The position numbers were made by a program, and so were the translations under genes. This document shows positions 1,958 through 44,765 of a DNA stretch of 64,000 nucleotides, piece by piece. The notes beneath the pieces were generated by a model. The model saw only the letters and a list, made by a program, of their open reading frames with translations, was not told the DNA's origin and ran no database searches. This DNA is from a virus (lineage: Duplodnaviria > Caudoviricetes): positions 7,075-71,074 of the IMG/VR virus record IMGVR_UViG_3300031716_000007, one strand, 5' to 3'. Within the stretch, counting starts at the first letter, position 1. Each line of letters starts with the position of its first letter.

Positions 1958-3829
1958 TTAACCTATAGAATACGTATTAAATAAAGGCCACTCGCCACTA
2001 TTTTCTGCTTCAAATGTCCATCCAATATTCATAGAAGTGCATGTGTGGTCATTGACCTTTCCTTTTGCTTTGAAGGAAAGCCTATCTCCTATATCGACGG
2101 ACAAACACCCTGGAACAATGATTGTGGTTACGGTATTTGTTAAAGTAAAGACAAGAGATGTATCAACTCCGTTCTTTCTCAAAACAATAATTCCAGGATT
2201 CGTCGCTGTGAAAGAAGCTCCCATACAAAGAATCGTAAGATTTTTAATCTTCCCAGCAACAGCAAACATAGTAAAAGGCTCTGCGCGCAGACTTAATTGT
2301 TGCCATGCCCCAGTTCCATGAATGGGATCAAAATAATCTACGGTTGTAAAAGGAGCACCTGTAAAACTTTTCCCATGATTACATTGTCTTGGATTATCTG
2401 GAATAAAATCAATGGACATTGATTTTGGGACGCCAGAAAAGAAAGCACTGCCTTGCCATCCAACAACATCGCCAGCATCAACATGGGCATTATGTGTGAC
2501 ATCTTCTCCTCGGAATTCTCCATCATTTATATGTGCGGCAAATCCCATACTAAAAAATTTATCAGATCCTACTTTCTTAATAAGAGTTAAATCTATCGTC
2601 GGAGTATTGACGGTTCCCCATATCTGAGGAGAATAATATAAGTAAGGATTCTTTACCTGCATATTATAAAATGTTCCAGGCGTTGTAATTAAAGTATGAA
2701 ATGCAAGGCTATCCCCGTTATAGCTAGAAAATAAACCAGCTTGTCCATAATTAGCATTGTCAGTAAGAGGCGCCCAGGAATTATTATGTGATGGGCCGAT
2801 CACCGGACATCGATAAGGATCACCTGTTCGCACGGCTGTTCCCATACAAATATGTGAACTTGCTGGACCATTATGCATATCTTCTCGAATATACACATGA
2901 TCGCCGTTCTCGCATTTAACGTCGGCATAAGCGATTCCATACTTAGAAGATCCAGCAATGGTTAACTGTAATGGTGTTGGCTGATCATTGTGATATAATG
3001 TAAAAACTCTTTTAGCGCTCCCGCCTGGCGCATTATTTAAATAAACACACATCCTCGTAAAGTTAAAATTCGTTGTGACTTTTGGAACAACAAACATTCT
3101 CGGTAGACTCCTTTGATATATTAAAGAGTTACCATCCCAGTTGTTATATCCTGTCTCACCACTTGTCGCTAAATGATCTGACACTGTATACCATCGTGTT
3201 GAAATCCCTGTTTGAGAAGAGCTGGATGAGCTAGAAGATGAATTGCCAGACATAGGAAAATATGTGTTCCATCGAACTTCAACAAGATCGATTCCCATAT
3301 GAAGCAATTTATAATTCACAAGCTGTCTGGTTAATTGATCATCTTTGAATCTTACTCTCATATAAAATTCATAAGATATTGTTATAACAGCCCCGAGAGT
3401 AGGCGCTGTCGTAAACGTAATATATGATTTTTCATTGGCAGTATCATTGCTTAGAACATAAGCGCTTGTTAAAACGCCACTTAATTTAGCAGAATGATTA
3501 GCAGTAGTATCAACAGGGAAATTATGTAATAAGAATTGCGTCGTTGTTCCATCACCGACGCCAATAGGTTCATCTGTCGTAGAGAAATCCGTTAGAACTT
3601 TTATTAAAAAATCATCTTTTCTGCCTTGCCGGGCAATATAAAAATCCCAAATTGTCTTAATGCTATCTTCGCTTCTAAATTTAAGACTTAATTTAAATTG
3701 GCGTAATCCAGCATCAATAAGCGCATCGCGAACTTCATGACCAGTCTCAGACTCATCAATTAAGGTTTTAAATTCAATCGTTTCTTCGAAACCAAATTCA
3801 GGTGTTAATGTAAGGATGTCTGTAATCAT
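1958..3829 (-). CDS. DUF2460-like distal tail protein paralogue A1: Dit domain, S9 linker, three beta-sandwich-like repeats
   Basis: N-terminal ~195 aa has F.TLIDESETGHE.R, GVGDGTTTQF.L and F..RVRF.DD motifs and is highly similar to 5951..7831; the C-terminus differs. Confidence 0.75.
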   Translation of the reverse strand: MITDILTLTPEFGFEETIEFKTLIDESETGHEVRDALIDAGLRQFKLSLKFRSEDSIKTIWDFYIARQGRKDDFLIKVLTDFSTTDEPIGVGDGTTTQFLLHNFPVDTTANHSAKLSGVLTSAYVLSNDTANEKSYITFTTAPTLGAVITISYEFYMRVRFKDDQLTRQLVNYKLLHMGIDLVEVRWNTYFPMSGNSSSSSSSSSQTGISTRWYTVSDHLATSGETGYNNWDGNSLIYQRSLPRMFVVPKVTTNFNFTRMCVYLNNAPGGSAKRVFTLYHNDQPTPLQLTIAGSSKYGIAYADVKCENGDHVYIREDMHNGPASSHICMGTAVRTGDPYRCPVIGPSHNNSWAPLTDNANYGQAGLFSSYNGDSLAFHTLITTPGTFYNMQVKNPYLYYSPQIWGTVNTPTIDLTLIKKVGSDKFFSMGFAAHINDGEFRGEDVTHNAHVDAGDVVGWQGSAFFSGVPKSMSIDFIPDNPRQCNHGKSFTGAPFTTVDYFDPIHGTGAWQQLSLRAEPFTMFAVAGKIKNLTILCMGASFTATNPGIIVLRKNGVDTSLVFTLTNTVTTIIVPGCLSVDIGDRLSFKAKGKVNDHTCTSMNIGWTFEAENSGEWPLFNTYSIG

Positions 3830-3831
3830 AA

Positions 3832-5949
3832 TTAGGCCACGCTTAATCTCATTGTAAAATCTGTTCCGTTTAAAGGTAGGGTTGCTCCGAATGCTGAACT
3901 GTTTACTGTAAAATAATACAATTGCCCTACATATACATTTGCACCGAAAACAATAGCAGCTTGATTATTACCTGCGGTATTAGTTACCAACGCCGTTTGA
4001 TCAGAATCAATGATACTGTCAACAGCAGCCATTAAATCAACAGACATGTATATGTTTCCGTCGGATGGATGATTATTAGCTGCAATATTAATAGTGAGCG
4101 TTCCATTTTTAGGAGCTCTCCATTTATACCAAACGCTTCTTATGACATACATTTCACATGGTTCACCCAATTCATAGTTCGCAGCAATTGTTGTCCCTCG
4201 GCGAACGATAAGGGTATTGTCACCAAGATCAATAGCATTATCAAAATCATTATTCGATGGTCTATCTCCAAATGTAAAATGAAGCTTATATGGTCCTCCG
4301 GGAACTATTGATGAAGTTGTGCTGACCGATGCAAAAGCTATATAATATGTGACTCCAACAGAAGCATAGAAGCTGATTGCGCTTGTTTGTTGGATGTTGG
4401 CGCCACTACTCTTAATGACAGGAACTAAATTTGTCAATGCTGTTCCTGTGTAAACAGCGACAACACAATACCTGAATCCTCCATGAATTTCGGTAAATGA
4501 TGGGACATAAAAAGACATCTCACCATTTTTAGTTGGTGTAAATTTATACCAAACAGTCTTTCGATTAACATATCCAGCGACATTAGATGCGTGATTAGGC
4601 TCATCTGTTTCGACACTTGCCCCAGACAAATCTCCTTCTAACAAAGAGAATGTCGTGCCTAAATCATTTAAGACATTTGAGATTTCTTGCGCATTAGCGA
4701 AATCATCATTACTTGGTCTTTGGAACTGAGTTAAGAACATTGTGAATTCAGCATCCGTAGGGGAAGAAGCATGGCTGATTTGTATTTTATATTCTTGTCC
4801 AGCGACGACGTTCATAATGAAATGGTAATTATTATCAAAAGACACTTGAGTGTATCCGACCTGCGTTAAGCTACCGACGGCCGATCCGGTATAAAAGACA
4901 ACCCATAATGTTTGGTTAGAAGGGAGAAGATATAATAATTTGAAATCAACTGAGCCTGTTCTTGGCGCTGTCCATTTGTACCATACCGTATCAGACAATC
5001 CTTGAAACGGCTCCCCGCCTTCAAGCGTTGCGCCAATAGTGTTTCCTGAAAATATTATGGCATCGTTAGAGCCTAAATTAATTGCATTTGAAAAAGCGTC
5101 ATTGGATGGTCCTCCGCTTTGTGATGATGAAGAACTCGACGACGATGAGCTCGATCGCGATGAGCTTGAGAAAGATGAGCTTGAACTCGATGAGCTGCTC
5201 GATGACGATGAGCTTGAACTTAATGAACTGCTTGAGCTAGAAAATGAAGAGCTGCTCGATGATGATGAAGAGCTTGATTGTGAAGAACTTGAAGAAGAAA
5301 GAGAGCTTGAGCTTGATGAGGAAGACGAGCTGCTAGATGAACTTGATGAAGATGAGGAGTTTCCTCTTTCTGGAATATAATTATCGAATCGAACTTCTTT
5401 TAATGTCATTCCAGTATTGAGCAATTGATAGAAAACTAATTCGCGGCTGAGCTTGTCGTCCTTGAATCTAACCTTAAAATAATATTCGTAAGTTACTTTA
5501 ATAGCTCCTGAAGATGGCGCTGAATTAAAATCGATATAAGATTTCTCGTTCTCTTCATCATTGGTAAGCACATATCCCGTGTTTGCAACATTATTAACCG
5601 TACACGAATTATTGGCAGCAGTATCTACAGGAAACCTCTTTAAGACGAATCTAGTTTTGCTACCATCGGCGGTGCCAACAGGATCGTTAGTTTCCATAAA
5701 TTCTGTTGGAATTTTTACGAGAAAATCTTCATAAGATCCTTTTCTTGCAATAAAGAAGTCCCAAATCAAATTAATTGAGTCTTGGGATAAAAACTTTATT
5801 GTCAATTTATATTCTCGTATTGTCGCCGGCCATCTTGCCGCGCGATATTCTGGACCGATTGATTGATGGTCAGAAACGTTTGTACGAAAGAGCGCCGTCT
5901 CTTCAATCCCGAATTCTGGTGTTAAATCTAGTATTCTGTCAGTTAGCAT
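3832..5949 (-). CDS. DUF2460-like distal tail protein paralogue B1: Dit domain, ~85-residue poly-Ser, three P(S)ND.F.NA repeats
   Basis: N-terminus is paralogous to 7836..9932. Three repeats of PSND.F.NA..L...G...GA..E.GEP...VWYKW/F resemble bacterial surface-protein beta-sandwich domains. Confidence 0.75.
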   Translation of the reverse strand: MLTDRILDLTPEFGIEETALFRTNVSDHQSIGPEYRAARWPATIREYKLTIKFLSQDSINLIWDFFIARKGSYEDFLVKIPTEFMETNDPVGTADGSKTRFVLKRFPVDTAANNSCTVNNVANTGYVLTNDEENEKSYIDFNSAPSSGAIKVTYEYYFKVRFKDDKLSRELVFYQLLNTGMTLKEVRFDNYIPERGNSSSSSSSSSSSSSSSSSSSLSSSSSSQSSSSSSSSSSSFSSSSSSLSSSSSSSSSSSSSSSSFSSSSRSSSSSSSSSSSQSGGPSNDAFSNAINLGSNDAIIFSGNTIGATLEGGEPFQGLSDTVWYKWTAPRTGSVDFKLLYLLPSNQTLWVVFYTGSAVGSLTQVGYTQVSFDNNYHFIMNVVAGQEYKIQISHASSPTDAEFTMFLTQFQRPSNDDFANAQEISNVLNDLGTTFSLLEGDLSGASVETDEPNHASNVAGYVNRKTVWYKFTPTKNGEMSFYVPSFTEIHGGFRYCVVAVYTGTALTNLVPVIKSSGANIQQTSAISFYASVGVTYYIAFASVSTTSSIVPGGPYKLHFTFGDRPSNNDFDNAIDLGDNTLIVRRGTTIAANYELGEPCEMYVIRSVWYKWRAPKNGTLTINIAANNHPSDGNIYMSVDLMAAVDSIIDSDQTALVTNTAGNNQAAIVFGANVYVGQLYYFTVNSSAFGATLPLNGTDFTMRLSVA

Positions 5950-5950
5950 A

Positions 5951-7831
5951 TTATGAGCTCAGTTGCCCGAAGATGGGCCATTCTCCGCCGTTGTCAGATG
6001 TAAAGACCCATGATAAATAAAAAGCTGATGAGCTCCCGTTTTGCGATGGCGCAAGAGTTACGGGAGATAATTTAATCGATAATCGATCCAATGCTGCAAT
6101 CCTAAGACACGGCTCTAAGGTAATTTTTTGCACAATATTTGTTATATTAAAAACAACATTCGTATCAACCTGATTTTTCCTAACAGTAAAAACTAATGGA
6201 AATCCAGAAACCGGAAGCGTGTTATACATCCATAAAATCATCTTTGAAATCCGGCCAGGTACGGCAAAATATGTAAACATTTTTTCAGTCGTTTCAAATC
6301 CTAAGCAGCGACCATTAATGGCGTTAAATAAATTTTGGCTAGGTGAAGTATCAATACTGCCCCATTTCTGGCAAGCATAAATGCCCTGTTTTGCTGTATC
6401 AGGAACAAAATCAATAGCGGAGCTTTGCGGATATGTTGCATTGAAATTTGTGCTTTCTCCAACATCCCAGTTATTATCATAAATTAAAATATCACCTTCC
6501 TCGACGCGAAATGCATCAGTGTTACCAATCTGATACGATAATCCAGGAATGATTGTCTTATAACCAGTAGAAACAAATCTGTCTGCAACTGTATAACGCT
6601 TGATTTCAGTAATGGCTTCTCCTAAAGATCCTGTTTGAACTCCGACGCCAGTGATTCTATTAGTAATAGACTGAAGGTTTCTTAAATATCCCGGAGCTGG
6701 CATTAAAGAGTGTACACCCAAAGCATTGGATATCCCTGCATAATTTTGAGAAAATACAGTATCTTGTGTCTCACATGGCAATATAGAACTTTTCAGATAA
6801 CCATGTATAGGTCCAGGAATCGGTTGTCTTCTTGGATCATTTGTTATGACTGAAAATCCTAAATTAATTCTAGAGGCTGTTGGTGAATTATATTGATCTT
6901 CTCTTAATTGAACATAGTCCCCGTCATTGCAAACAATAAAGCTACTGACTTCCGCCGTCTTAACAGATCCAGCAATTGTGCAAGTTAGTGTCGTCGGTAA
7001 CTCATTAATATATAAAGTAAACGTTCTTTTCTTATTTGATCCCGGAGCAGTATCCAAATAAACAATCATCCGAGATATTGTCATCTTCGTCACGCAATGC
7101 GCGTAGCTGACACGCATGAGTTGGCTTTGATTTAAAAAAGATGTTCCGTTATATGTTGTGGAAGCGCTGTTTAACCAAAAAGGCGCATACCATCGTGTTG
7201 AAATATTGTTTGCTGAAGAACTCGAAGAGCTTGATGAAGAATTACCAGACACGGGAAAATATGTATTCCATCGAACCTCAACTAAATCGAGGCCAACATT
7301 TAAAAGTTTATAGCTTACTAACTGACGACTTAACTGATCTTCTTTAAAACGAACACGTATATAAAATTCGTAAGAAGCGGTAATGATATCACCAAGCGCC
7401 GGAGCCGTAGTAAAGGTTATATAAGATTTTTCATTAGCGATATCATTGCTTAATATATAAGCTAAGTTCGCAACGCCATTTAACTTTGCAGAATTGTTTG
7501 TAGAAGTATCGACTGGAAAATTGTGTAATAGAAATTGTGTTGTTGTTCCATCACCGACGCCAATAGGTTCATCTGTAACATAAAAATCTGTGATGACTTT
7601 TATTAAAAAATCATCTGTTTTTCCTTGACGGTCCATATAAAAGTCCCACAAAGATTGAATGCTATCTTCATTTCGGAACTTAAGATTCAATTTAAACTGC
7701 CTCATTCCGGTATCAACTAAAGCATCACGCACTTCGTGGCCAGTTTCAGACTCGTCGATTAGAGTCTTGAATTCGATGCTTTCTTCAAAGCCGAATTCGG
7801 GTGTTAATGTTAAGATGTCCGTGATAGCCAT
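5951..7831 (-). CDS. DUF2460-like distal tail protein paralogue A2
   Basis: Same architecture as 1958..3829: near-identical N-domain, GN-S9 linker, diverged C-domain. Confidence 0.75.
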   Translation of the reverse strand: MAITDILTLTPEFGFEESIEFKTLIDESETGHEVRDALVDTGMRQFKLNLKFRNEDSIQSLWDFYMDRQGKTDDFLIKVITDFYVTDEPIGVGDGTTTQFLLHNFPVDTSTNNSAKLNGVANLAYILSNDIANEKSYITFTTAPALGDIITASYEFYIRVRFKEDQLSRQLVSYKLLNVGLDLVEVRWNTYFPVSGNSSSSSSSSSANNISTRWYAPFWLNSASTTYNGTSFLNQSQLMRVSYAHCVTKMTISRMIVYLDTAPGSNKKRTFTLYINELPTTLTCTIAGSVKTAEVSSFIVCNDGDYVQLREDQYNSPTASRINLGFSVITNDPRRQPIPGPIHGYLKSSILPCETQDTVFSQNYAGISNALGVHSLMPAPGYLRNLQSITNRITGVGVQTGSLGEAITEIKRYTVADRFVSTGYKTIIPGLSYQIGNTDAFRVEEGDILIYDNNWDVGESTNFNATYPQSSAIDFVPDTAKQGIYACQKWGSIDTSPSQNLFNAINGRCLGFETTEKMFTYFAVPGRISKMILWMYNTLPVSGFPLVFTVRKNQVDTNVVFNITNIVQKITLEPCLRIAALDRLSIKLSPVTLAPSQNGSSSAFYLSWVFTSDNGGEWPIFGQLSS

Positions 7832-7835
7832 AATT

Positions 7836-9932
7836 TTAAGCTACGGTTGCTTCTAATAAAAAGTCACCGCCGTAATCGGTGTCATTACAGGCAATCTGAA
7901 TAAAATAAGTGTATCCTGTATAAATTTTAGGATATGGTGAATTAAACGCATTTAAGTTACCGCTGGAATCTGGCCCAGCCCCAGGAGAATAAGGGAACAA
8001 TCGACTAATAGGAATGCCGTCATATCCGACGAAAATCATTATTCCAAGTGTTGTAATGTTGGGATCCCACTTAATATTAATGACTTGATTACCTGTCCGA
8101 GCCGGTCGCCATTTATACCAAACACTATTATTTAATGTCCCTGATGAAAACGGTTCTCCCATTTGATCTGAAGCATTAATATTTGATCCTCGAACAACAG
8201 CATGAGTCACATCGCCTAAATCATAAGCATTGGCTAAGTTATCATTGCTTGGTTGTCGCCCATATGAATATGCAAAATTAAAATTCCAGACCTTAGATGT
8301 TGTCGATATATTTGATCCCGTCGCGATTGCGATATAATATGTCGTTCCTAAATTCGCAATGAAAGAAATGCTTGTTGTACTTAAAGTGCTTTTGGCAACA
8401 GCGACTAATCCAGCAAGAGTGGTTCCTGTGTACGCCGCAATAAAAATACCCCCTCCGGACTGATCTGGGATTGGATCAGTATACGTTCTAATATTGAATG
8501 AAACTCTTCCCGAGGCTGGTGCGACAAATTTATACCAGACAGAAAACAGGTTATTATAACTAGATTCATTACTGGCATGATTAGGCTCACTTGTCTCTTT
8601 ACTTGATCCAATAAGCGTTCCGGAGACACTATAGCTGCCTGTGCTAAGATCATTAAGACCATTGGCTAAAACAATGGCATTCGCAAAATCGTCATTCGGC
8701 GGTTTTGCATTCATTGTGAAACTTAACGTAAATTGCAATTCATCCGCCGGAGATGAGTTAAATGAAACAACCTCAAATTTATATTCTTGTCCAGCCGTTA
8801 CAGCAAAGCGTCTTGGCCCAAATCCTCCGCTGCCATGAAAATCTGTATGATAAATAAATGTCAACCCTGTAAGCGTTGTGCCAGTATAAACATAAACATC
8901 AATATTGAAATTTCCATGATTGCCTGGATTAAGAACATCCATTTCTAATTGTCCGCTACGCGGAGCCGTCCAGCGATACCAAACGGTTTTTCTGCCATTA
9001 TTAGGATCATTGGCTTCATCTGTTGCGCCTATGGTATTACCATTAATAATAATAGCGTCAACAGATCCCAGGTTTGTTGCATTGGCAAAAGTATCGTTAG
9101 ATGGGCCGCCACTCTGCGATGAAGAAGAGCTGCTCGAGGATGAGCTCGATAATGACGAACTGCTCATTGACGAACTTGAACTCGATGAGCTCGACGACGA
9201 TGAAGAGCTTGAGCTACGAGATGAAGAAGAGCTTGAAAACGAAGAGCTACTAGATGATTGTGAAGAGCTGCTTGATGAAAATGAGCTTGAGCTATTTGAT
9301 GAGGAAGAGCTCGACGATGAAGAAGACGAGCTGCTTGAATTTCCTATGTCTGGATTGTAAGTATTGAAGCGGACTTCTTTTAATGTCAATCCAGTGTTAA
9401 GCAACTGATAAAAGACAAACTCTCTGGTTAATTTGTCGTCTTTAAACCTAACTTTAAAATAGAACTCATAACTAACCTTAATAGCTCCTGAAGATGGCGC
9501 TGAATTAAAATCGATATAAGATTTCTCGTTCTCTTCATCATTGGTTAAGACATAATCAGTATTAGCAATATTATTGACGGTGCATGAATTATTTGCAGCG
9601 GTATCAACGGGGAATCTTTTTAATGTAAATCTTCTTGTGCTGCCATCCGCAGTGCCAACATTCTCAAGTGTTTCGCTATATTCAGTTGGGATTTTAACTA
9701 AGAAATCTTCATAAGAACCTCGTCTAGCAATGAAAAAATCCCAAAGACTCTGCATCGCTGAGTCAGAAGCATATCGTATACTTAATTTATATTCTCTTAA
9801 AGAAGCGGACCAACGTTGGACTCTATATTCGGGGCCTATGGACTGATGATCAGAAACATTCGTGCGGTAAGTTGATATCTCTTCGATACCGAACTCTGGC
9901 GTGATGTCTAATATACGGTTGAACAATGACAT
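7836..9932 (-). CDS. DUF2460-like distal tail protein paralogue B2
   Basis: Same architecture as 3832..5949; lies directly downstream of the tape measure gene, the canonical Dit position. Confidence 0.75.
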   Translation of the reverse strand: MSLFNRILDITPEFGIEEISTYRTNVSDHQSIGPEYRVQRWSASLREYKLSIRYASDSAMQSLWDFFIARRGSYEDFLVKIPTEYSETLENVGTADGSTRRFTLKRFPVDTAANNSCTVNNIANTDYVLTNDEENEKSYIDFNSAPSSGAIKVSYEFYFKVRFKDDKLTREFVFYQLLNTGLTLKEVRFNTYNPDIGNSSSSSSSSSSSSSSNSSSSFSSSSSSQSSSSSSFSSSSSSRSSSSSSSSSSSSSSSSMSSSSLSSSSSSSSSSSQSGGPSNDTFANATNLGSVDAIIINGNTIGATDEANDPNNGRKTVWYRWTAPRSGQLEMDVLNPGNHGNFNIDVYVYTGTTLTGLTFIYHTDFHGSGGFGPRRFAVTAGQEYKFEVVSFNSSPADELQFTLSFTMNAKPPNDDFANAIVLANGLNDLSTGSYSVSGTLIGSSKETSEPNHASNESSYNNLFSVWYKFVAPASGRVSFNIRTYTDPIPDQSGGGIFIAAYTGTTLAGLVAVAKSTLSTTSISFIANLGTTYYIAIATGSNISTTSKVWNFNFAYSYGRQPSNDNLANAYDLGDVTHAVVRGSNINASDQMGEPFSSGTLNNSVWYKWRPARTGNQVINIKWDPNITTLGIMIFVGYDGIPISRLFPYSPGAGPDSSGNLNAFNSPYPKIYTGYTYFIQIACNDTDYGGDFLLEATVA

Positions 9933-9935
9933 GCA

Positions 9936-12881: not shown

Positions 12882-12882
12882 T

Positions 12883-13380: not shown

Positions 13381-13384
13381 AGTT

Positions 13385-14404: not shown

Positions 14405-14417
14405 GTAACTAATCCTC

Positions 14418-15669: not shown

Positions 15670-15732
15670 AGCTGCCTAAGTGAATTATCTCTGCCTTTTT
15701 AGAACTAATCTTCGTCATTGGAGAAGGTTTGA

Positions 15733-25252: not shown

Positions 25253-25253
25253 A

Positions 25254-25562: not shown

Positions 25563-25570
25563 AGATCCTC

Positions 25571-29170: not shown

Positions 29171-29180
29171 TGATATCCCT

Positions 29181-33209: not shown

Positions 33210-33229
33210 TTTTAATCTACCTGTTTTCT

Positions 33230-35431: not shown

Positions 35432-35449
35432 TTTTTGTCCTGATTTAAT

Positions 35450-35491
35450 AAAAAAGCAGAAAATTTCTGTATAGAAAGATTCTGCTTTTTT
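35450..35491. terminator. Long hairpin with A6/T6 flanks (bidirectional intrinsic terminator candidate)
   Basis: AAAAAAGCAGAA...TTCTGCTTTTTT with an inner TTTCT/AGAAA stem; separates the glyco cluster from the structural genes. Confidence 0.7.
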
Positions 35492-35507
35492 GGGTTATCC
35501 CCACGGA

Positions 35508-37350: not shown

Positions 37351-38263
37351 AGACTCCTCTCATCCATTCAATTGTTTTCTCAATACCTTCTTCTAAGGTA
37401 ATTTTTGGGTCGTGGTTTAAAAGTTTTTTTGCTTTCTCGATAACCGGCCTTTTATTTGTAACATTGTGCTTATCAATTTCTTTAAGCACCATTAAGCTTT
37501 CCGGCTTACCTGCACATTTTAAGACGATACGAGCAAGGTCCTCAACAGAACGATATTCCGTCCCTCCGATATTAATAACTTCACCGTCTTTAAATCTCTC
37601 ACAAGCATTGGCCAGCGTCGGTATGAAATCGTCAATATACATAAAAACACGATGATAATCCTTGTAGACTGTAAAAGGAATATCATGAAGTGCTTGATAA
37701 CAAAAAAGACAGCACACTGATCGATAATTCGTAAAATTCTCCCCCGGTCCATACGCATTAAAAAATCGAAGAATCTCAATTTGGTTTTGATACCGATCAC
37801 GAAAGTTTTTAATCTGCATCTCATTGACCAATTTAGAAATCGCATAATCGTTATGCAATCTCCCGTGCTCCATATCCTCGGTAATATATTCTGCCGTCAA
37901 GTCACCATAAATCTCAGAACTCGACGCATGAATCATTTTAAAACCTAATCTTTTCTGAACTTCGAGCAAGTTGCGCATACCAATAACATTGCTCTTCCAG
38001 CATTTTTCATAAAATTCTTCGCCATTAATACGACCAAATTCAGCTGCAAGATTCAATACAACGTCTGGGCTAAAACTAAAATCATCATGCATGCGTTCAA
38101 ACGCGACCAAAATCTGTCTTATCTCACTAATATCGCATCGTAATTCGCGTGGATTGTTAGAGTGTTTTAAATCAAGGCCAAACACCTCATGTCCACGTCG
38201 ATTGAGCTCTTGCACTAAAGGTTTACCAAGCGTTCCATTTGATCCTGTTACTAAAATTTTCAT
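37340..38263 (-). CDS. NAD-dependent NDP-sugar epimerase/dehydratase/decarboxylase (extended SDR)
   Basis: VTGSNGTLG, NLAAE, HASSSEIYGD, YAISK, RFFNAYGPG. Confidence 0.92.
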   Translation of the reverse strand: MKILVTGSNGTLGKPLVQELNRRGHEVFGLDLKHSNNPRELRCDISEIRQILVAFERMHDDFSFSPDVVLNLAAEFGRINGEEFYEKCWKSNVIGMRNLLEVQKRLGFKMIHASSSEIYGDLTAEYITEDMEHGRLHNDYAISKLVNEMQIKNFRDRYQNQIEILRFFNAYGPGENFTNYRSVCCLFCYQALHDIPFTVYKDYHRVFMYIDDFIPTLANACERFKDGEVINIGGTEYRSVEDLARIVLKCAGKPESLMVLKEIDKHNVTNKRPVIEKAKKLLNHDPKITLEEGIEKTIEWMRGVYGK

Positions 38264-39174
38264 TTAAACTCCATCCTTTCGTAATCTTTCCACATTGTTT
38301 CTGGCGTCATCGCATTAAATTTGGCCATGAAATCTCTAATGCTATTAAAATTACTAATAGCATTAAAAAAGTTAGGAGAATCATTTCTATTCGGCGCGAT
38401 TTCATTGTTAGCCCGTCCTTCCTTCCACCATCGGTTATGGATTGCATAAACTCGCTCTGGATTAAACATCATCATATCGCGTTCAACATATCGCGTTTCC
38501 CAATAATTAAAATCACATACCCACTGATGACCATCTAAAACAATGATGTCTTCTTGTTTAATATTCTTCCTAATTGACCTATTCATTGCGATCAATGGAT
38601 GACTTCTCTCGTCGGTAACAGCATAATCAAATGTAAAGTCGTACCAGTCTTTGAGGAACTGATTATGATGTTTAGGATCGAAAAATACTGGGAAATCTGC
38701 AAGAGCCGCATACATTCTGTCGCGAATATCGTCAATTGAATGTTTGTAGAGAGATTCCACTGGAAACATTGAATGTTTATGATCAGCTGTTATCAACTTC
38801 TTTTCATTAAAAGCTTTCTCAAACCATTCGTTCATATTGCCGCAAAGAAACAAATCTCCGTCAATAATGCAAACAGCGTCATAATCATCTTTGATGTGAT
38901 TGGCCCACCAATACTTCTCCGCAAAGAAGGCATGATAAAGGTCGTTATAAACACGATTAGGTTCTCGCTGTTTAATTAAGTTCCAAACAACTTTAAATGG
39001 AAACGCTTTAGAGCACGCGTCCATATATTCCTGTGTCATGGCTTCATGATGAACGATATGGAAATCAGCTTCAGTGCCGTAGTATTTCATCGCGTTCATC
39101 GTTGCATTAAGCGAGAACATGTACCCTGGTGAAATTGTCGCAACAAAAGCGAAACGTTTATTTTTCACGATCAA
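38260..39174 (-). CDS. GT8-like glycosyltransferase (paralogue of 36349..37350)
   Basis: KRFAFV...GY...A.MNAM.YYG N-terminus and EKYWWA...YDAVCIIDGDLF. Confidence 0.6.
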   Translation of the reverse strand: MIVKNKRFAFVATISPGYMFSLNATMNAMKYYGTEADFHIVHHEAMTQEYMDACSKAFPFKVVWNLIKQREPNRVYNDLYHAFFAEKYWWANHIKDDYDAVCIIDGDLFLCGNMNEWFEKAFNEKKLITADHKHSMFPVESLYKHSIDDIRDRMYAALADFPVFFDPKHHNQFLKDWYDFTFDYAVTDERSHPLIAMNRSIRKNIKQEDIIVLDGHQWVCDFNYWETRYVERDMMMFNPERVYAIHNRWWKEGRANNEIAPNRNDSPNFFNAISNFNSIRDFMAKFNAMTPETMWKDYERMEFK

Positions 39175-39895
39175 TACCTGCCTTTAATTTATCTACAGCT
39201 TGTGGATAAAGCCCATGTCCATTAAAATCAGCAGCATTAAGACCGCCATTTGTTTGATGGCCTAATCGCATACCTTCCCGAGTCGAATCATGCATCTGTC
39301 CGTTGCCGTTAAAATGAACCATTGTTATCTTGCTTCGTAAATCGATCATGCGATCAATCCCATACACATTCTTAAGGCCATTAAATGTATTCCACAGAAC
39401 AACATCACCGTCCCATGTCTTAATTAAATGATGATGAAAATAACCCAAAGCATTAATCGCTTCTCGACTAAGGATTGGAAACGGAGCAAAAATATCGGTA
39501 TGTCCACTTACTCCGGTATTGATATATGCAATCCTATGATTTAAATTTCTTTTATAAATGCTATCCACAATGATTTTGTCCCATCCTTCAGATCCGTGAA
39601 GCTTGCAATCATCGTTAAGCGCCCAAATCAAATCCCCTTCAGCTTTCTTGGCCAAATAATTATAATAATCCTGAGATAAGTTGTCGGTCCTTGTCTCAAC
39701 AAAGATCTTATAATTGATAGACTTACCAAAACTCTTCTCTAGTAAGTGAACATATCCTGAATCAACATCATCGTCATCAATTTTTATCAAGAACTCAACA
39801 TTCTGAATATCCTTAGCTTTAGAAACAATAGAATCGATTAGGTCGATTAGCATGCCCGGCCGTCTGCGCGATGGTATTAACAAAGAAAATTTCAT
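39158..39895 (-). CDS. GT2-family glycosyltransferase
   Basis: SLLIPSRRRP, FLIKIDDDD, DLIWALNDDC. Confidence 0.8.
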   Translation of the reverse strand: MKFSLLIPSRRRPGMLIDLIDSIVSKAKDIQNVEFLIKIDDDDVDSGYVHLLEKSFGKSINYKIFVETRTDNLSQDYYNYLAKKAEGDLIWALNDDCKLHGSEGWDKIIVDSIYKRNLNHRIAYINTGVSGHTDIFAPFPILSREAINALGYFHHHLIKTWDGDVVLWNTFNGLKNVYGIDRMIDLRSKITMVHFNGNGQMHDSTREGMRLGHQTNGGLNAADFNGHGLYPQAVDKLKAGIDREK

Positions 39896-40107
39896 TTAAA
39901 AACCCCCTGACAATAAACGTTAGCTTTTCCTCGAGATTCTTCTTTCTCAACTTTATCGACCTTCTCAAATATCAGCATAAATGTTTTGTGCGTAACTAAT
40001 CGAATGGCCTTTACAATTTGTTCAATGCGATCTTCAGCATGCTCATTAATAATGACCTTACCGCCATAAACCTTATCACTAATCTTAAATTGGAAATTGA
40101 TTTCCAT
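39892..40107 (-). CDS. Hypothetical protein
   Basis: TAATG-coupled to the upstream gene. Confidence 0.45.
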   Translation of the reverse strand: MEINFQFKISDKVYGGKVIINEHAEDRIEQIVKAIRLVTHKTFMLIFEKVDKVEKEESRGKANVYCQGVFK

Positions 40108-40664
40108 TATTTCACCACCCATGCTGTAAAATCAGATGATTTATTTAATTTCTCACCAAAACATTCCTCGACGATCTCTGTTAAAGGATGGACAAGGCCA
40201 ACATCATGCATTAAGAAAAATCCTCCTTCACGCACAAGCGGATAAAATAATTCAATGTCTTTTTTAATCCCTTCCTCGCTATGATCACCATCAACTAAAA
40301 CAAAATCAAACAACTTATCTGGATTCTTATTCTTAATCCATTTGTGTGCTTCAACGCTTTTCATAACAAGCATGCAGACCCGTTCCCCAAATTCAGGAAG
40401 CAATAACCTGGATTCTGCAAACCGTCTGTTCTCATTATGATAGTCTTGCGGCTCCCCGGCCTCGAACTCCGCCCCGTCGCGGTGTTCATAAGGATCTATC
40501 GTATAAAGTTGAACTTGAGGAAGAGCCCATAAGACAGCCCGCGTTAAATCACCACATTTTGTCCCAATCTCGATGCCACAGATAACCTCTTGCTTGGAAA
40601 ACATATCTTTAATAAGTTTCCCAGCTGTCTGGTATAAATTTAAATTCTTCATTTCTGCTTCCAT
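40107..40664 (-). CDS. Class I SAM-dependent methyltransferase (Methyltransf_24-like)
   Basis: IEIGTKCG, IDPY, FDFVLVDGDHS, LVREGGFFLMHD. Confidence 0.85.
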   Translation of the reverse strand: MEAEMKNLNLYQTAGKLIKDMFSKQEVICGIEIGTKCGDLTRAVLWALPQVQLYTIDPYEHRDGAEFEAGEPQDYHNENRRFAESRLLLPEFGERVCMLVMKSVEAHKWIKNKNPDKLFDFVLVDGDHSEEGIKKDIELFYPLVREGGFFLMHDVGLVHPLTEIVEECFGEKLNKSSDFTAWVVK

Positions 40665-40981
40665 TTTGCCTCTTTCTTTTCTTCCTCAATAAGCCCTCTT
40701 AACAAAGATAAATATACCCGCGCATCTAAAATACGACCTTCAATTGACTCAGATAAAACTTTCTCGCTCTTGATATAAGAAGCAATGCTGTCCAAGTGCT
40801 TCTTTAAATAAACATAAAGAACTTTCTTCGGTGATACACCAATCTCTTTTGCAATGCGTTTAAAATTATCTAACCGATCGCCTTGCGTGTACTCTTTACC
40901 CTTCGTCGCTGCGATCTGCGTTTCCTCTTGATGCATTTTGTCTAGTAGTTTATCGAACTCTTCAAATGTCATTCTCTCCAC
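40649..40981 (-). CDS. DUF1599 / nucleotide-modification-associated-domain-like protein
   Basis: KGKEYTQGDRLDNF...YLKKHLDSI...ESIEGRILDARVYL pattern. Confidence 0.55.
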   Translation of the reverse strand: MERMTFEEFDKLLDKMHQEETQIAATKGKEYTQGDRLDNFKRIAKEIGVSPKKVLYVYLKKHLDSIASYIKSEKVLSESIEGRILDARVYLSLLRGLIEEEKKEAKWKQK

Positions 40982-41784
40982 CGTAATCCTTCTTTATAGC
41001 CGTCCATCTTTCTTAAAATAGCAATCCCATAAATTTCACAGATCCGAACATATTCCCAATTGTATTTTGGGTTCTTAATAACTTCGTGACACCCGACTTC
41101 GCCCGGACCATATACGTCATGAAGCAGCATGAACCCGTTTCCTTCGCCTTTAAGTTGAGGATAAAGAACTTCTGCTTCATGACGTATATGGTCTCGATCG
41201 TGACATCCATCTAAAAATATCATGTCAAATCGAACGTCTTTAAACGTCTCAGATGTCAGATTAATTGAATCCATCTGAATGAGTGTATTTGGAAGGCCGG
41301 CCGCATCAAGCTTTGGCTTGACAACTTCCGTTCGATCTAAGATATCGACGCCATAATACATATTGCCGTACATCTTATAGCGTGTCGCATTATCCTTAAC
41401 AGCATGTGCTAGATACCACGACGTATAACCTTCAGCAACGCCAACCTCAAGAATCTGTTCAGCGCCAATCGCTCGAGCGAAATAATACAACATCGGGCCA
41501 AAGAAACTGATCGTTGAATTAAGATTCGTGTGATGCGCTGAGTGAACGAGCTCCATAATCGGTGCTGGATAATCAGTAAAATACTCAATATCCAACGGAT
41601 GAGTAATCTTTTTATTCGCATAATGCGGTAAGAGCGGCTGATTCAATATCTTTAAAAAATATTGAAACTGCCGCTCAAACTCTTCTTCGCTAACCGTACC
41701 AATGCCACGGCCAAGATTAGCGAAGTGTTCGCGTGTTTTGTTGAGAGCTCGTTCTTTTTGATCGTGAGAATATCTAACTTCCAT
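40969..41784 (-). CDS. Class I SAM-dependent methyltransferase (Methyltransf_24-like)
   Basis: LEVGVAEGYTS, FDMIFLDGCHD, GFMLLHD. Confidence 0.85.
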   Translation of the reverse strand: MEVRYSHDQKERALNKTREHFANLGRGIGTVSEEEFERQFQYFLKILNQPLLPHYANKKITHPLDIEYFTDYPAPIMELVHSAHHTNLNSTISFFGPMLYYFARAIGAEQILEVGVAEGYTSWYLAHAVKDNATRYKMYGNMYYGVDILDRTEVVKPKLDAAGLPNTLIQMDSINLTSETFKDVRFDMIFLDGCHDRDHIRHEAEVLYPQLKGEGNGFMLLHDVYGPGEVGCHEVIKNPKYNWEYVRICEIYGIAILRKMDGYKEGLRWRE

Positions 41785-41802
41785 AGTGAGTTTACCTCAT
41801 TA

Positions 41803-42090
41803 TTATTTTCTGTTTAAAGAAGCGAAGAAAGCTCCTAAGCCTTCTTGCACTCGCTTAGCATGATCGGGTGTTGTTCCAGGATAAATAATTGCTGTGATCA
41901 CTGGGGCCTCACCTTGTGGATCAGCTGTGATATTGATCGTCGCTGATACCCATTCACCTGGATCGTTAAAGCTGGCGCAAATTTCACCAAGCTTAGTAAA
42001 CGCTCCAACAAAATCATTTCCGAAATCAATTCTTTTTTGTTCGTCAGCTTTTTGCATATTGCACCCTTTTCTCTTTAATAAATTAAACAT
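41803..42090 (-). CDS. Hypothetical protein
   Basis: Operon position. Confidence 0.45.
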   Translation of the reverse strand: MFNLLKRKGCNMQKADEQKRIDFGNDFVGAFTKLGEICASFNDPGEWVSATINITADPQGEAPVITAIIYPGTTPDHAKRVQEGLGAFFASLNRK

Positions 42091-42290
42091 TAGATTGCTA
42101 AGACATCGTTTAAAGCTTGGTTAATAAGATTTAAATCTAGTGAATATGATGCTGTCTGTACTTCAGATTGTAATGCGACATATTCTTTGTATCGAAGATT
42201 GTCGCCATTTTTCATCGCTGTATATCTCAATTTGTTGTAGGTTACTAATAAGTTACATGCTGCTGAAAACGCCATTGGATCCATTGCCAT
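42090..42290 (-). CDS. Hypothetical protein
   Basis: GGAGG RBS before ATG 42290; the longer track start overlaps the upstream gene. Confidence 0.45.
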   Translation of the reverse strand: MAMDPMAFSAACNLLVTYNKLRYTAMKNGDNLRYKEYVALQSEVQTASYSLDLNLINQALNDVLAI

Positions 42291-42315
42291 CTTTCCCTCC
42301 TTGATTGGTACGTTA

Positions 42316-44061
42316 TTATTTTTTTCGCGCGATGCCGATCCCTTTACCGTTGTGATCTTCATAAAACTCAAATTGTTGTCGATAGGTTTGTTTGAAATCG
42401 TCCCAGACATCCTGAAGCGAACATCCATCAGGAGTGATGTCGTCAAATAAAATAAACCCGCCTTGCTCAATTAAAGCATGAGCATGAATTAAATCCATCT
42501 TGGCATATTCTTTATCGTGACATCCATCGACGAGGATATAATCAAACGTTTGGCCGTCTGCGATCAGTCTTGGCATTTCTTCAATGGAGCTTCCTTTAAT
42601 AAACTGAATGCGATCTGTTGGGATATTTAAAATCTCTAAATTAGCCTTGACAGAATCCGGACTTCCCATCTCAGCAAAAATATCGCACAAAAAAACTTTC
42701 TCAATAGCGTCATACTTAAAATAAGAACTTAATAATTGACAAATGGAAACTCCTGTCCTACATCCAATTTCTAAGATCCGCTTCGGCGCAAAGTTGCTGC
42801 CGATCCAATGCATGACGTGGTATGAATCCATGAAATTCTCGCCGCGCTTAGCGTAGTGCCATTGATACGCTTCTAAGTATTCGTCTTTCGGATTGTATTT
42901 CTTAAGGATCCGTAAAATGTTAAAGATATGCGCGTTAACCATTCTGTTTCTTTGGTCAAGTGTAAAATTAATTTGCTTCGATTCGATGGGAGCCTCTTCA
43001 ACATTTAATGGCACGGGAATTTCTTGTTTAACTGGCATAGGCTCCTCTTTTTTTGTAACAGTGAAATTATTTTTCATCGTATCAAGTTCCGGTAATCGTC
43101 CGCCCAAATAATACAATTCAATTGATCGTGCGATATCTTCCGGGCGAATCAGTTCCATACATAATGGTTGGCCCGTCTTTAAATGTTTATTAATGCATTC
43201 CTCGGTCCGTGATTTCCAACATCCGTCATAACTCGCGCAACTCATGACGCCGTTACGATATAAAAACTGATGGTCTGGGTTAATCTGCCATCTGACACCC
43301 TCGCGCGCACCAGCGACGACAACGCACGGCTTCTTTAACGCGGCCGCAATGACCATGTTCATCGATACGCAGTTCAGCAGACCGTCAGCGTCGCGGCAGA
43401 CACGAAACAATTGTCTTAAATTTGTTTTTCCTCTTAAATCAATAACGCCTTTGAGTGCTGGATGAGTATGCGCGGAATGTCCGACTTGAACAAATTGAAT
43501 CTTGCCTTGCAGAAGATCAACAACCTCTTGATAATTGTTGTACCACTTAAGCGTATAATCGTTTTTAATCCCAGCATTAATGACCCAATATCGTCCTCGA
43601 TACTGCGAAAATTTATGCACCGGGTTAGCAGAGGCAATCTCTGTTGGTGAAAAGAAGATGTCCGGTTGAAGTCCTGTTGCCGGGATCGCAATCCCTAGTT
43701 GTTTCGATAAAAATAAACGATGTCCGTCGGAGAAATGCGCTCCTGTCATGCCAGATCGACTAATTTCCGGATAATGAGCAATAAGATATTTTATTCCTTC
43801 CAATTCAATAGGTGGATGATTCTCATCTTTCTTAAGCTCTTCAATAATATTTAATTCTTTTTGGTTATCGGCTGGATGTAAAGGCGTGATGTATGGTGAA
43901 TACTGAAAGATCTCGTTACACGGGCTGCGCACATCAACCTCGAAGCGTCCCGGATACGCTTTGTGAAGCGAACGAATCGCACAGGTCATCATTAAGATAT
44001 CCCCAGGCGAGAGGCTATTTACGAGAACGATTTTTTCTTTTGTTGCGACGACAGTTGTCAT
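42316..44061 (-). CDS. GT9-like glycosyltransferase fused to a C-terminal SAM methyltransferase
   Basis: SLSPGDILMMT.AIRSLHKAYP, DLRGKTNLRQLFRV...VIAAALKKP; C-terminal LEIGCRTG...FDYILVDGCHD...GGFILFDD. Confidence 0.8.
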   Translation of the reverse strand: MTTVVATKEKIVLVNSLSPGDILMMTCAIRSLHKAYPGRFEVDVRSPCNEIFQYSPYITPLHPADNQKELNIIEELKKDENHPPIELEGIKYLIAHYPEISRSGMTGAHFSDGHRLFLSKQLGIAIPATGLQPDIFFSPTEIASANPVHKFSQYRGRYWVINAGIKNDYTLKWYNNYQEVVDLLQGKIQFVQVGHSAHTHPALKGVIDLRGKTNLRQLFRVCRDADGLLNCVSMNMVIAAALKKPCVVVAGAREGVRWQINPDHQFLYRNGVMSCASYDGCWKSRTEECINKHLKTGQPLCMELIRPEDIARSIELYYLGGRLPELDTMKNNFTVTKKEEPMPVKQEIPVPLNVEEAPIESKQINFTLDQRNRMVNAHIFNILRILKKYNPKDEYLEAYQWHYAKRGENFMDSYHVMHWIGSNFAPKRILEIGCRTGVSICQLLSSYFKYDAIEKVFLCDIFAEMGSPDSVKANLEILNIPTDRIQFIKGSSIEEMPRLIADGQTFDYILVDGCHDKEYAKMDLIHAHALIEQGGFILFDDITPDGCSLQDVWDDFKQTYRQQFEFYEDHNGKGIGIARKK

Positions 44062-44233
44062 CTTTTATTTTCTCCAAAGCTTCCATTGCTTGTTGTTTGC
44101 TATTGTAAATTCCTATTAGTTCCCATCCGTATTTAGGCATCCCGAGTCGCTGCAATAATGTTTGAATATGATATTCTTTTTGTTCCTCGTTATATTCAAT
44201 GACAAACCGTACATAATACTTAGGCTTTTTCAT
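44015..44233 (-). CDS. Hypothetical protein
   Basis: Fills the gap between two genes with short overlaps. Confidence 0.35.
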   Translation of the reverse strand: MKKPKYYVRFVIEYNEEQKEYHIQTLLQRLGMPKYGWELIGIYNSKQQAMEALEKIKDDNCRRNKRKNRSRK

Positions 44234-44765
44234 TTTTAAAAATGTAAGAATTAATGTACTCACGCGGCGGACACTCAGGCATTCCTTTAGCAATCAATTT
44301 AAATCCCATGTGTTTAAACATATGTTCTAAAAGATCGTCGGTGAAATAATGCAAATGTTCTGACGGCTTAAAATGTTTGTATCCTTGCCAGGGGACATCC
44401 GGAGGCTTAACAGGAACACTTATGACAACGTAATCGCCTTTTTTCAAAATTGGTTCAACCTCTTTAAAATCCGGAATGTGTTCAAGTACGTCGTACATCG
44501 TAATCACATCGTATCGTTGTCTTTTAATTCCTGTTTGCGGGACCGGCATAATATCAAATGTGTCAACGTCCCAGCCGCCCGGCGCAAATGATTTCATGGC
44601 GCCGATGCCGCAGCCATAATCTAAAAGTGTCAGCTGTTCATCTTCCTCGCTTCGAAAATCAATATTGTCCATGATAAATGTGTAGCGTTTCGTCATGACA
44701 TCGCGCGCGGTTGAAGCTTGAATCTTAAGAAGATTGTAATAATAATTCTCGTCGTACTTGATCAT
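44220..44765 (-). CDS. Class I SAM-dependent methyltransferase (Methyltransf_23-like)
   Basis: LLDYGCGIG, YDVITMYDVLEHIPD, EHLHYFT. Confidence 0.85.
   Translation of the reverse strand: MIKYDENYYYNLLKIQASTARDVMTKRYTFIMDNIDFRSEEDEQLTLLDYGCGIGAMKSFAPGGWDVDTFDIMPVPQTGIKRQRYDVITMYDVLEHIPDFKEVEPILKKGDYVVISVPVKPPDVPWQGYKHFKPSEHLHYFTDDLLEHMFKHMGFKLIAKGMPECPPREYINSYIFKNEKA

Follow-up and report, generated by a model that had tools for sequence, protein, structure and literature searches.

Why should a phage carry serine runs of up to 525 residues on its particle proteins, directly beside a cluster of sugar-transferring and sugar-modifying enzymes? The question is raised by a 64,000-nucleotide stretch of viral DNA (hereafter the window, for the whole stretch), bases 7075–71074 of the 71,074-bp IMG/VR virus genome IMGVR_UViG_3300031716_000007, of which about 7 kb lie outside the window. 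An initial annotation, made from the letters alone, had pointed to nine structural genes with serine (Ser) tracts and to a neighboring cassette of glycosyltransferases (GTs) and methyltransferases as a possible system for glycosylating the virion. Our analysis makes it probable, judging from gene content and sequence, that the phage encodes a 'tag and writer' system that glycosylates its own particle, in which poly-Ser tracts would be the tags, a GT9-like domain that we call GT9L would add the first sugar, and a variable set of further enzymes would lengthen the glycan and cap it. That tracts and enzymes are functionally linked is supported by a comparison across phage genomes.

We used a script to search all open reading frames (ORFs) of at least 100 aa in the window for runs of five or more Ser. 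Such runs occurred in exactly nine complete ORFs, those initially annotated, with tracts of 9 to 525 residues. All other ORFs of this size had at most six Ser per 20 aa, including those for the portal, terminase, capsid and tape measure and every gene of the right arm. The count of nine thus held for the window but not for the phage: a tenth tagged gene encodes a lambda-J-like tail fiber whose Ser tract lies outside the window. All ten tagged genes stand in the virion arm, as the initial annotation had it for the nine. The tracts are 91–100% Ser and are encoded by 838 TCN and 412 AGY codons, with all six Ser codons mixed within them; they are therefore a feature of the protein rather than a simple DNA repeat, which excludes single-unit slippage and bears out the selection on the protein that had been read from the same codon mix. 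At a background of ~7% Ser, a run of nine is expected ~4e-11 times per position, so chance is excluded as their origin. For scale, the largest low-complexity region in a survey of 102 phage proteomes was 115 aa (PMC6821194).

The residues other than Ser within the tracts are mostly Leu and Phe, with Cys in some relatives. Tracts of the window phage are punctuated by Leu or Phe every 10 or 15 residues, those of L089, G013 and G014 (our handles for IMG/VR loci, L, and genomes, G) by Cys and Phe (e.g. SCSSCSSSSC, SSSFSSSSSC), and those of G015 form an S/T/E/V repeat (SVSSSSSSESTSV); the tracts concerned are at L089:10595-11533, L197:7358-8110, L199:6162-9587, L185:15244-19767 and L186:14104-18477. 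Leu, Phe and Cys codons are one base change away from Ser codons in the standard code, so the punctuation may be either functional or mutational.

The same pattern recurs in relatives of the window phage (lineage i). Related portals are encoded at 13 IMG/VR loci. Nine of these (portal identity 55–66%) are syntenic and carry Ser tracts on the same genes: on a giant protein encoded ahead of the terminase, on one or two proteins encoded after the capsid, at the C-terminal end of the tail tube, and on the distal tail protein (Dit) and the central fiber. Among relatives with 50–66% identical portal, terminase and capsid, tract position is conserved and tract length varies. The other four loci (portal identity 29–39%) have no tracts, and a 34-kb provirus fragment, the only one of the four studied in full, lacks cassette genes too. 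Contigs of relatives typically break inside the giants, so the cassette in relatives was reached from its own genes.

An alignment-based scan with a GT8-like cassette protein found 33 viral loci, and wherever more than 3 kb of downstream sequence was available, a poly-Ser ORF lay no more than a few kb away; the equivalent scan with GT9L added more distant members at 37–42% identity. We then counted distinct GT9L genes at 90% clustering, pooled over all fetched IMG/VR loci: 31 of the 34 contigs have Ser-rich ORFs in the fetched DNA, and both features occur in every complete or near-complete genome examined. An apparent Ser-rich ORF in L180, called at a loose threshold, proved to be a spurious antisense ORF. 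As a neutral anchor we took the capsid protein of an unrelated ~40-kb phage family, which was found at 80 loci (35–100% identity), and counted the 33 loci with at least 5 kb downstream. Twelve had both a Ser-rich ORF and GT9L, 21 had neither and none was discordant (Fisher 2.8e-9, a value that overstates the evidence since the loci are related). In a maximum-likelihood capsid tree, 11 positives fall in one clade (support 99/95) and L105 is nested in a clade with 15 negatives (support 100/100), so the paired trait changed at least twice in this family, by two gains.

Three members of this survey separate GT9L from the rest of the cassette. L083 and L089 encode a protein of 36–44% Ser after the capsid gene and carry GT9L inside a 914/932-aa protein, together with different sugar enzymes; they have no genes for the GT8-like protein, for the second GT9-like protein of the cassette (GT9s) or for Methyltransf_24 (MT24) enzymes. 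In L105 the system is reduced to a 210-aa protein with S9-A at its end and a stand-alone GT9L of 285 aa. Of the cassette enzymes, then, GT9L alone comes with the tag in every case, and the GT8-like, GT9s and MT24 genes are frequent but dispensable. The initial annotation had proposed the coupling for the GT/methyltransferase set as a whole, with discordance in most relatives as the contrary outcome; discordance is confined to a small minority of GT9L contigs and absent from the neutral-anchor survey, and the set is indeed linked to tags, with only GT9L universal in it.

The pair of tag and GT9L is found on three or more phage backbones that are unrelated to one another. The cassette and two or three poly-Ser proteins are carried by G006–G009, four genomes of 38–43 kb that are complete or nearly so, on a backbone that differs from the window phage in its terminase, portal (PHROG 156) and capsid (PHROG 334) and that lacks a homologue of the window tail tube; their gene order runs from the capsid through a small gene and a ~330-aa protein whose C-terminal half is poly-Ser to the cassette, more poly-Ser proteins and the tail genes. 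A third backbone is G013 (IMGVR_UViG_3300009034_002371; L183, L197–L200), 82.7 kb and an estimated 27% complete, possibly a jumbo phage, with five poly-Ser ORFs, GT9L, two GT8-like genes and no similarity to the structural proteins of either other lineage. The GC content of carriers ranges from 0.29 to 0.51.

In the window GT9L is the N-terminal part of a 581-aa protein fused to a methyltransferase (Table 1), and the forms of the writer range from the stand-alone 285-aa protein to this fusion. By sequence it appears to be a GT9-like GT-B domain: 29 of its 30 nearest ESM Atlas clusters are viral GT9, and its profile also matches the GT9 structure 3tov. The GT motif (SPGD) starts at about residue 16, and what precedes it in relatives is either nothing or a methyltransferase domain. 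Searched against 1.84 billion cluster representatives, the GT9L profile returned 1002 proteins at E≤1e-30. Nine long members of the family were scanned; eight exceed the PF01075 cut-off (25–64 bits vs 22), and all nine carry extra domains (GT2, Mannosyl_trans3, GT34, a PLOD-type GT, methyltransferase, Erv1/Alr or zinc-ribbon), so that by their domain content the relatives of GT9L look like glycan-assembly polypeptides. Relatives fuse GT9L to a class I methyltransferase at the N-terminus, to MT24 at the C-terminus or to both, and these fusions argue that transfer and methylation are coupled. Four Cys near the end of the GT domain (C275, C281, C289, C301) are invariant in 17 close relatives; a similar pattern is found in only 24 of 150 representatives of the wider family, and an iron finger of the type found in the autotransporter heptosyltransferase TibC, a possible feature of the close relatives, is not family-wide. 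Single-sequence scans of viral contigs with the 581-aa protein, and with a 733-aa protein that lies between the cassette and the giants, returned nothing; it was alignment-based scans that succeeded.

Table 1. Tagged genes and enzyme cassette of the window phage, in window coordinates.
Feature	Position	Strand	Details
Lambda-J-like central tail fiber, N-terminus	2-694, 3'-open	(-)	Full protein 1170 aa
DUF2460 Dit paralogue 1	1958-3829	(-)	9-aa Ser tract
DUF2460 Dit paralogue 2	3832-5949	(-)	79-aa Ser tract
DUF2460 Dit paralogue 3	5951-7831	(-)	9-aa Ser tract
DUF2460 Dit paralogue 4	7836-9932	(-)	74-aa Ser tract
Tail tube	13385-14404	(-)	Pfam Phage_tube_2; 22-aa C-terminal Ser tract after the conserved fold
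Post-capsid decoration-like protein 2	17081-17575	(-)	C-terminal 40-aa Ser tract
Post-capsid decoration-like protein 1	17654-18076	(-)	Ends S15-T-stop
Giant 2	25571-29170	(-)	1199 aa, 39% Ser; tracts of 217 and 213 aa separate globular domains
Giant 1	29181-33209	(-)	1342 aa, 53% Ser; tracts of 47, 129 and 525 aa
733-aa protein, family unassigned	33230-35431	(-)	Between cassette and giants; weak PHROG minor tail protein match
GT9s, second GT9-like GT-B glycosyltransferase	35508-36356	(-)	282 aa; AlphaFold2 model, pLDDT 90; Foldseek
GT8-like retaining GT-A glycosyltransferase	36349-37350	(-)	333 aa; AlphaFold2 model, pLDDT 91; Foldseek
NAD-dependent NDP-sugar epimerase/dehydratase (SDR)	37340-38263	(-)	Pfam Epimerase 7.6e-38
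GT8-like paralogue	38260-39174	(-)	304 aa; hhalign vs GT8-like protein, probability 98.4%, E 9e-15
GT2-like GT-A glycosyltransferase	39158-39895	(-)	PHROG 14945 8.7e-11; Pfam GT2 0.0024, below cut-off
Methyltransf_24 methyltransferase	40107-40664	(-)	Pfam 2.3e-15; weak RMNT_CmcI 0.0019, weak NCBIfam RhmsylMtase
Methyltransf_24 methyltransferase	40969-41784	(-)	Pfam 3.3e-12; relatives 38-60% identical; frequent cassette member
581-aa GT9L-methyltransferase fusion	42316-44061	(-)	GT9L, residues 1 to ~330 (window 43075-44052); Methyltransf_24, residues 430-542
Class I SAM methyltransferase (Methyltransf_23)	44220-44765	(-)	Pfam 4.2e-17; first cassette gene

The tagged proteins carry their tracts either as tails or between domains. 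The tail tube ends in R-S11-T, a tail appended past the last conserved strand; tubes of relatives at 53–65% identity have tails of ~15–25 Ser, and the 30%-identical homologue in L011 ends without one. In relatives the first of the two decoration-like paralogues is untagged and the second tagged, with tagged homologues of the second in L001, L003, L005 and L007. The major capsid protein has no Ser tag; the small post-capsid proteins are tagged instead. Each of the four Dit paralogues (623–705 aa) consists of an N-terminal Dit domain, the Ser tract and a divergent C-terminal domain by Pfam, weakly galactose-binding-like in two of the four. Relatives have a single Dit gene of 219–235 aa that ends in poly-Ser (L016:5503-6174, L017:8536-9240, L021:11-667), a comparison which suggests that an existing Ser tail gained further domains after it and that the gene was then duplicated.

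In the J-like fiber, which matches PHROG 31 (central tail fiber J, 2e-51), Phage-tail_3 and fn3, a Ser tract at aa 776–945 is followed by a 225-aa C-terminal domain, both outside the window; homologues with Ser tracts are found in G001 and G003. The N-terminal 200 aa of Giant 1 resemble a minor tail protein (PHROG 2106/553, 1.6e-6), and every lineage-i relative has a poly-Ser giant at this place, upstream of TerS/TerL. The central region of the 733-aa protein is homologous to the N-terminal part of the poly-Ser giants in L030, L042 and L055 (tblastn); the protein has no Pfam or NCBIfam family and no lipoate-protein ligase match at E≤0.01. A rough calculation, with ~160 tube subunits of 21 Ser and several hundred decoration-like copies of 15–38 Ser, puts the number of potential acceptors on one particle at the order of 10^4, giants excluded.

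The enzyme inventory of the initial annotation (two GT8-like, one GT2-like and two GT9-like transferases, one short-chain dehydrogenase/reductase (SDR) and four S-adenosylmethionine (SAM) methyltransferase domains) was reproduced in full with Pfam, NCBIfam, PHROGs and AlphaFold2 folds. The predicted model of GT9s has a GT-B fold of the GT9 type, like WaaC and WaaF (top Foldseek matches WaaC, TibC, WaaF and 3tov, probability 1.00). Its gene adjoins that of the GT8-like protein in relatives, and its profile-profile similarity to GT9L is limited to the N-terminal GD motif. The model of the GT8-like protein has a GT-A fold with a DxD motif, resembling glycogenin, XXYLT1 and LARGE1; its top Foldseek matches are LARGE1, XXYLT1, WbbM, AgtA and glycogenin, and the motif (L90-D91-A92-D93) is invariant in 36 sequences. 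The protein scores 22.6 bits against a Pfam GT8 cut-off of 24.3, and some homologues carry PF01501 or PF03407. Its family counts 223 proteins, of which the best 120 are 50–100% identical, and a pattern scan of one-genome-per-species prokaryote contigs found none, and so pointed to neither a prophage nor a host. We consider it a probable extension enzyme. Its paralogue keeps a DxD-type 'DGD' motif and has homologues in most cassettes. Searches of PDB by sequence, with single proteins and with profiles, gave nothing or weak GT9 matches only.

Three of the four methyltransferase domains are MT24, of the TylF/CmcI-like sugar O-methyltransferase type. The Methyltransf_23 gene is 42–50% identical in relatives and keeps its position in L028–L035 and L051. 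The GT2-like and SDR genes are accessories: the former lies outside the conserved core and the latter is conserved only in L042 (63%). The best NCBIfam matches of the SDR are dTDP-glucose 4,6-dehydratase and ADP-heptose 6-epimerase, both far below cut-off, and no heptose-pathway genes were recognised. The right arm, correctly annotated as free of Ser tracts, is not free of sugar-type enzymes: at 56669-62286 (+) it encodes a B12-binding radical SAM protein, a class I/II aminotransferase, a 127-aa ORF, a three-domain thiamine diphosphate (ThDP) enzyme and a TylF-like MT24. In G003 the position of this block is taken by a single MT24 homologue. A homologue of the B12 radical SAM protein (24% identity) lies inside the transferase cassette of L022/L041, so the right-arm block may feed the glycan pathway. 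The tracts, the folds and families of the enzymes and the co-occurrence of tag and writer are what the analysis itself shows.

The record ends overlap by 127 bp, giving a closed (circular) assembly, and public runs that hold the window DNA are labelled soil metagenome; no RNA runs are listed among public holders of the cassette. The left 46 kb form one minus-strand block. In order of transcription it holds two small conserved genes, the enzyme cassette (44765 down to 35508), the 733-aa protein and the two Ser-rich giants, followed by small proteins, the large terminase, the portal, a protease/scaffold-capsid fusion and the two small post-capsid proteins, and then adaptor-like and neck genes, the tail tube, the tape measure, the four DUF2460 paralogues, a hub of the type found in gene transfer agents (GTAs) and phiJL001, and the lambda-J-like central fiber. 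Cassette, giants, packaging, head and tail genes share one strand, with the cassette immediately ahead of the giants and the packaging genes and with overlaps among its own genes, a layout that would suit co-expression with the genes of the particle. A promoter and terminator scan of 24000-43900 gave counts at chance level, uninformative on operon structure.

The two small ORFs directly upstream of the cassette (44762-45214 and 45322-45627, both (-); 150 and 101 aa) are 31–41% identical, at the same position, in lineage-i relatives. The capsid fusion (18164-20719, (-), 851 aa) begins with a protease/scaffold-like part, to which a major capsid domain of the Phage_capsid_4 family is joined, and its closest named relative is in Microcystis phage Mae-JY22, a Mu-like phage (31% identity over 76% of the protein). 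The plus-strand right arm encodes an SNF2 helicase, RNase H, an archaeo-eukaryotic primase (AEP) across the record start, a CHAP endolysin and the sugar-type enzyme block; proteins of the cyanophage Pam3 gp33-like and gp34-like families are encoded there as well. The primase (878 aa, TOTE-type AEP domain plus PriCT-1) occupies genome positions 344–2980 (+) (L014:344-2980), just past the end of the window (window 62920-64000). Neither lysogeny genes nor tRNA genes turned up. There is no near-identical GenBank phage, and megablast of the structural arm against GenBank phages gave no match.

In the system that we consider probable, the tags would be unstructured poly-Ser tracts on surface-exposed particle proteins, present as C-terminal tails on the tail tube and decoration-like proteins and as tails or linkers in Dit, the central fiber and the giants. 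GT9L would act in the cytoplasm and attach the first sugar to the hydroxyl groups of Ser, in the way that the GT9-related enzymes TibC and AAH modify autotransporters. A lineage-variable set, here the GT8-like protein and its paralogue, GT9s and the GT2-like enzyme, would then lengthen the chain; a modified NDP-sugar would come from the SDR and possibly also from the right-arm block, and methyltransferases of the Methyltransf_24/TylF type, one of them fused to the writer, would O-methylate the sugars. Because the tagged proteins are exposed on the particle, the product would be a glycan brush over head, tail and tail tip together with long mucin-like fibers. Such a coat might shield the particle, help it to adhere to polysaccharide matrices or keep it colloidally stable in soil. 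We infer Ser as the acceptor, GT9L as the first enzyme, the donor sugars, the methylation of the sugars and the biological role from the genes and their relatives.

Several observations weigh against this scheme. The placing of GT9L at the priming step comes from its universality only. Its own scores lie below the Pfam and NCBIfam cut-offs (22 bits for NCBIfam heptosyltransferase; profile against WaaF, E 0.012), and it gave no sequence match to TibC. Three of the 34 GT9L contigs lack a Ser tract; all three are fragments, one of 16.5 kb, one of 20.4 kb (an estimated 36% complete) and one of 26.5 kb (an estimated 28%). The independent gains behind the co-occurrence are probably few, 3 to 6, and tag and enzyme could travel together for another reason. 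Among GenBank phages (50,697 records), tblastn at E≤1e-3 found no match for the GT8-like protein, GT9L or the GT9L of L105, and thus no cultured carrier. Finally, in the bacterial proteins that use polyserine as a linker, glycosylation of the linkers is not established (PMC6821194, PMC2699552).

These last proteins lead to a different account, in which the tracts are unmodified, flexible hydrophilic linkers or 'entropic bristles' and the cassette acts on host envelope glycans, lipopolysaccharide (LPS) or phage DNA. Bacterial proteins that act on polysaccharides are known to contain poly-Ser linkers (PMC6821194, PMC2699552); tracts of the four Dit paralogues, the J-like fiber and the giants do lie between globular domains, of which some are carbohydrate-binding-like; and phage GTs often target DNA or O-antigen (bioRxiv 10.1101/2023.12.21.572611; PMC12619734). 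Yet no domain is tethered by the terminal Ser tails of the tube, of the decoration-like proteins and of Dit in relatives, so the tracts are not merely linkers, and the association of GT9L with Ser tracts was perfect in the neutral-anchor survey, with two gains in one capsid family. As for the targets, the phage GTs so far described as acting on DNA are of two kinds, JGT/TarP-like GT-A and T4 beta-GT-like GT-B enzymes, and their genes cluster with 5mYOX or ThyS (bioRxiv 10.1101/2023.12.21.572611). The window ORFs submitted to Pfam gave no match to a thymidylate-synthase-like hydroxymethylase (ThyS), 5mYOX or C5-MT, and action on DNA is unsupported, with no hydroxymethyl-pyrimidine pathway among the genes scanned. 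Action on LPS seems less likely, given that the cassette sits in the particle operon and that neither lysogeny genes, an integrase nor Gtr-type genes for serotype conversion came to light. By type, moreover, the methyltransferases are sugar O-methyltransferases (TylF/CmcI-like). We regard this account as unlikely.

It is similarly improbable, in our judgment, that the cassette modifies the tracts in some other way, through a different primer (GT9s, the GT8-like protein acting like glycogenin, or a host enzyme) or to a non-classical product such as a single heptose per Ser or a sugar-phosphate polymer. GT8-clan enzymes can act on protein side chains, glycogenin is among the fold matches of the GT8-like protein, that protein is as conserved as core virion genes (50–85% identity), and TibC adds single heptoses (PMC4358343); but L083, L089 and L105 have tags and GT9L with no GT8-like or GT9s gene, and the many extension-type GTs and methyltransferases, including GT9L fusions, point to an oligosaccharide in most lineages. 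To dismiss the tracts as non-functional low-complexity expansions by replication slippage, or as assembly artefacts, tolerated in non-essential parts of virion proteins, strains belief far more. Tract lengths do differ widely between relatives, contigs often break inside tracts, and the residues that interrupt them (Leu, Phe and, in some relatives, Cys) are a single base from Ser codons. The mixture of all six Ser codons speaks against this account, however, as do tracts at the same positions in proteins only 30–65% identical, their absence from all non-virion genes, their tracking of GT9L and the closure of the genome into a circle. Glycosylation of the tags with GT9L as the first enzyme is thus the reading that we carry forward.

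A broader proposition is that homopolymeric Ser, or more broadly Ser/Thr, is a portable acceptor tag read by a large and barely characterised viral family of GT9-like protein O-glycosyltransferases comprising ~1000 clusters at 50% identity; here we see the chances as evenly balanced. Were it so, a phage that acquires the writer might glycosylate any particle protein by growing a Ser tail on it, and uncultured phages of soil and water would in this way gain a mucin-like methylated glycocalyx over head, tail and fibers, a surface chemistry for which mycobacteriophages are the only virions on record. A search of the literature yielded no account of poly-Ser virion proteins linked to a transferase cassette, in keeping with the initial annotation, to which no such dedicated system was known. 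If the reading is right, self-glycosylation of the particle would be widespread among uncultured phages, with different enzymes and a simple, evolvable acceptor, and a substrate class could be assigned to the viral GT9-like family of ~1000 sequence clusters. Models of the phage surface would change for adsorption, for colloidal behavior in soil and biofilms, for resistance to proteases and desiccation and for immune recognition, and tag and writer would make a compact two-part tool for protein glycoengineering in bacteria.

How does such a system relate to those already known? Closest in kind is the O-glycosylation of mycobacteriophage virions, in which, as cited in passages of PMC12619734 and PMC10955285, glycans sit at the C-termini of capsid and tube subunits; the initial annotation had drawn on this precedent, and the secondary citation in PMC12619734 agrees with it as far as that passage goes. 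As in those phages, the window enzymes are encoded with virion genes. The C-terminal Ser tails of the window phage are on its tube and decoration-like proteins; in the ~40-kb phages of the other lineage the cassette sits between capsid and tail genes. The likeness does not extend to the capsid, since the major capsid protein of the window phage is untagged and the tags are on small post-capsid proteins. The predicted acceptors, moreover, are homopolymeric Ser of up to 525 residues on ten proteins, and the GT8-like protein and GT9L have no match in the GenBank phage search given above. The present system also recurs in uncultured phages of soil and water, on three or more unrelated backbones, and is known from genes alone. 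To our knowledge, experimental proof of virion glycosylation by phage-encoded enzymes exists only for a few mycobacteriophages; Freeman et al. are said to have described virion O-glycosylation in Che8, Corndog and Myrna (Cell Host Microbe, 2023).

For the writer itself, the nearest analogues are the bacterial autotransporter heptosyltransferases (BAHTs; TibC and AAH, PDB 4RAP/4RB4), GT9-related GT-B enzymes that heptosylate many Ser of autotransporters in the cytoplasm (PMC4358343). TibC has an N-terminal beta-barrel at residues 1–97 (PMC4358343), which GT9L lacks, and the substrate of GT9L would be a disordered homopolymer, not a beta-helix. On the side of likeness, TibC is among the top fold matches of GT9s, and the four Cys of GT9L recall the TibC Cys4 iron finger.

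Very long Ser-rich tracts and GT8-type enzymes in a dedicated cluster are shared with the serine-rich repeat glycoproteins of Gram-positive cocci (GspB, Fap1, PsrP). There the tracts become densely O-glycosylated: GtfA/GtfB prime and GT8-type and other enzymes extend, in the cytoplasm and from a dedicated cluster, to yield fibrillar surface products. Pfam and NCBIfam found no GT4 (Glycos_transf_1; GtfA/GtfB) or Sec (SecA2/SecY2) families among the ten cassette proteins; the window system differs in its GT9-like priming, as we predict it, in its virion carriers and in near-pure Ser as against SASA-type dipeptide repeats. Chlorovirus PBCV-1 offers a parallel to the GT9L-MT24 fusions of the window phage and its relatives: its A064R is a cytoplasmic, multi-domain glycosyltransferase and methyltransferase that builds and methyl-caps the N-linked glycan of the major capsid protein. 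PBCV-1 is, however, a eukaryotic giant virus with other GT families and no homopolymeric acceptor tag.

The tags have their own parallel in the polyserine linkers of Saccharophagus degradans and Teredinibacter turnerae, long, near-pure Ser stretches of mixed codons that join carbohydrate-binding and catalytic domains (PMC2699552, PMC6821194). The window Dit paralogues and fiber resemble them. The bacterial enzymes are secreted and have no dedicated transferase cassette, whereas the phage tracts are often terminal tails and track GT9L. In kind, then, the system proposed here would belong with phage self-glycosylation of the virion; what would be new is the scale and simplicity of the acceptor, the family of the writer and the spread over unrelated uncultured phages.

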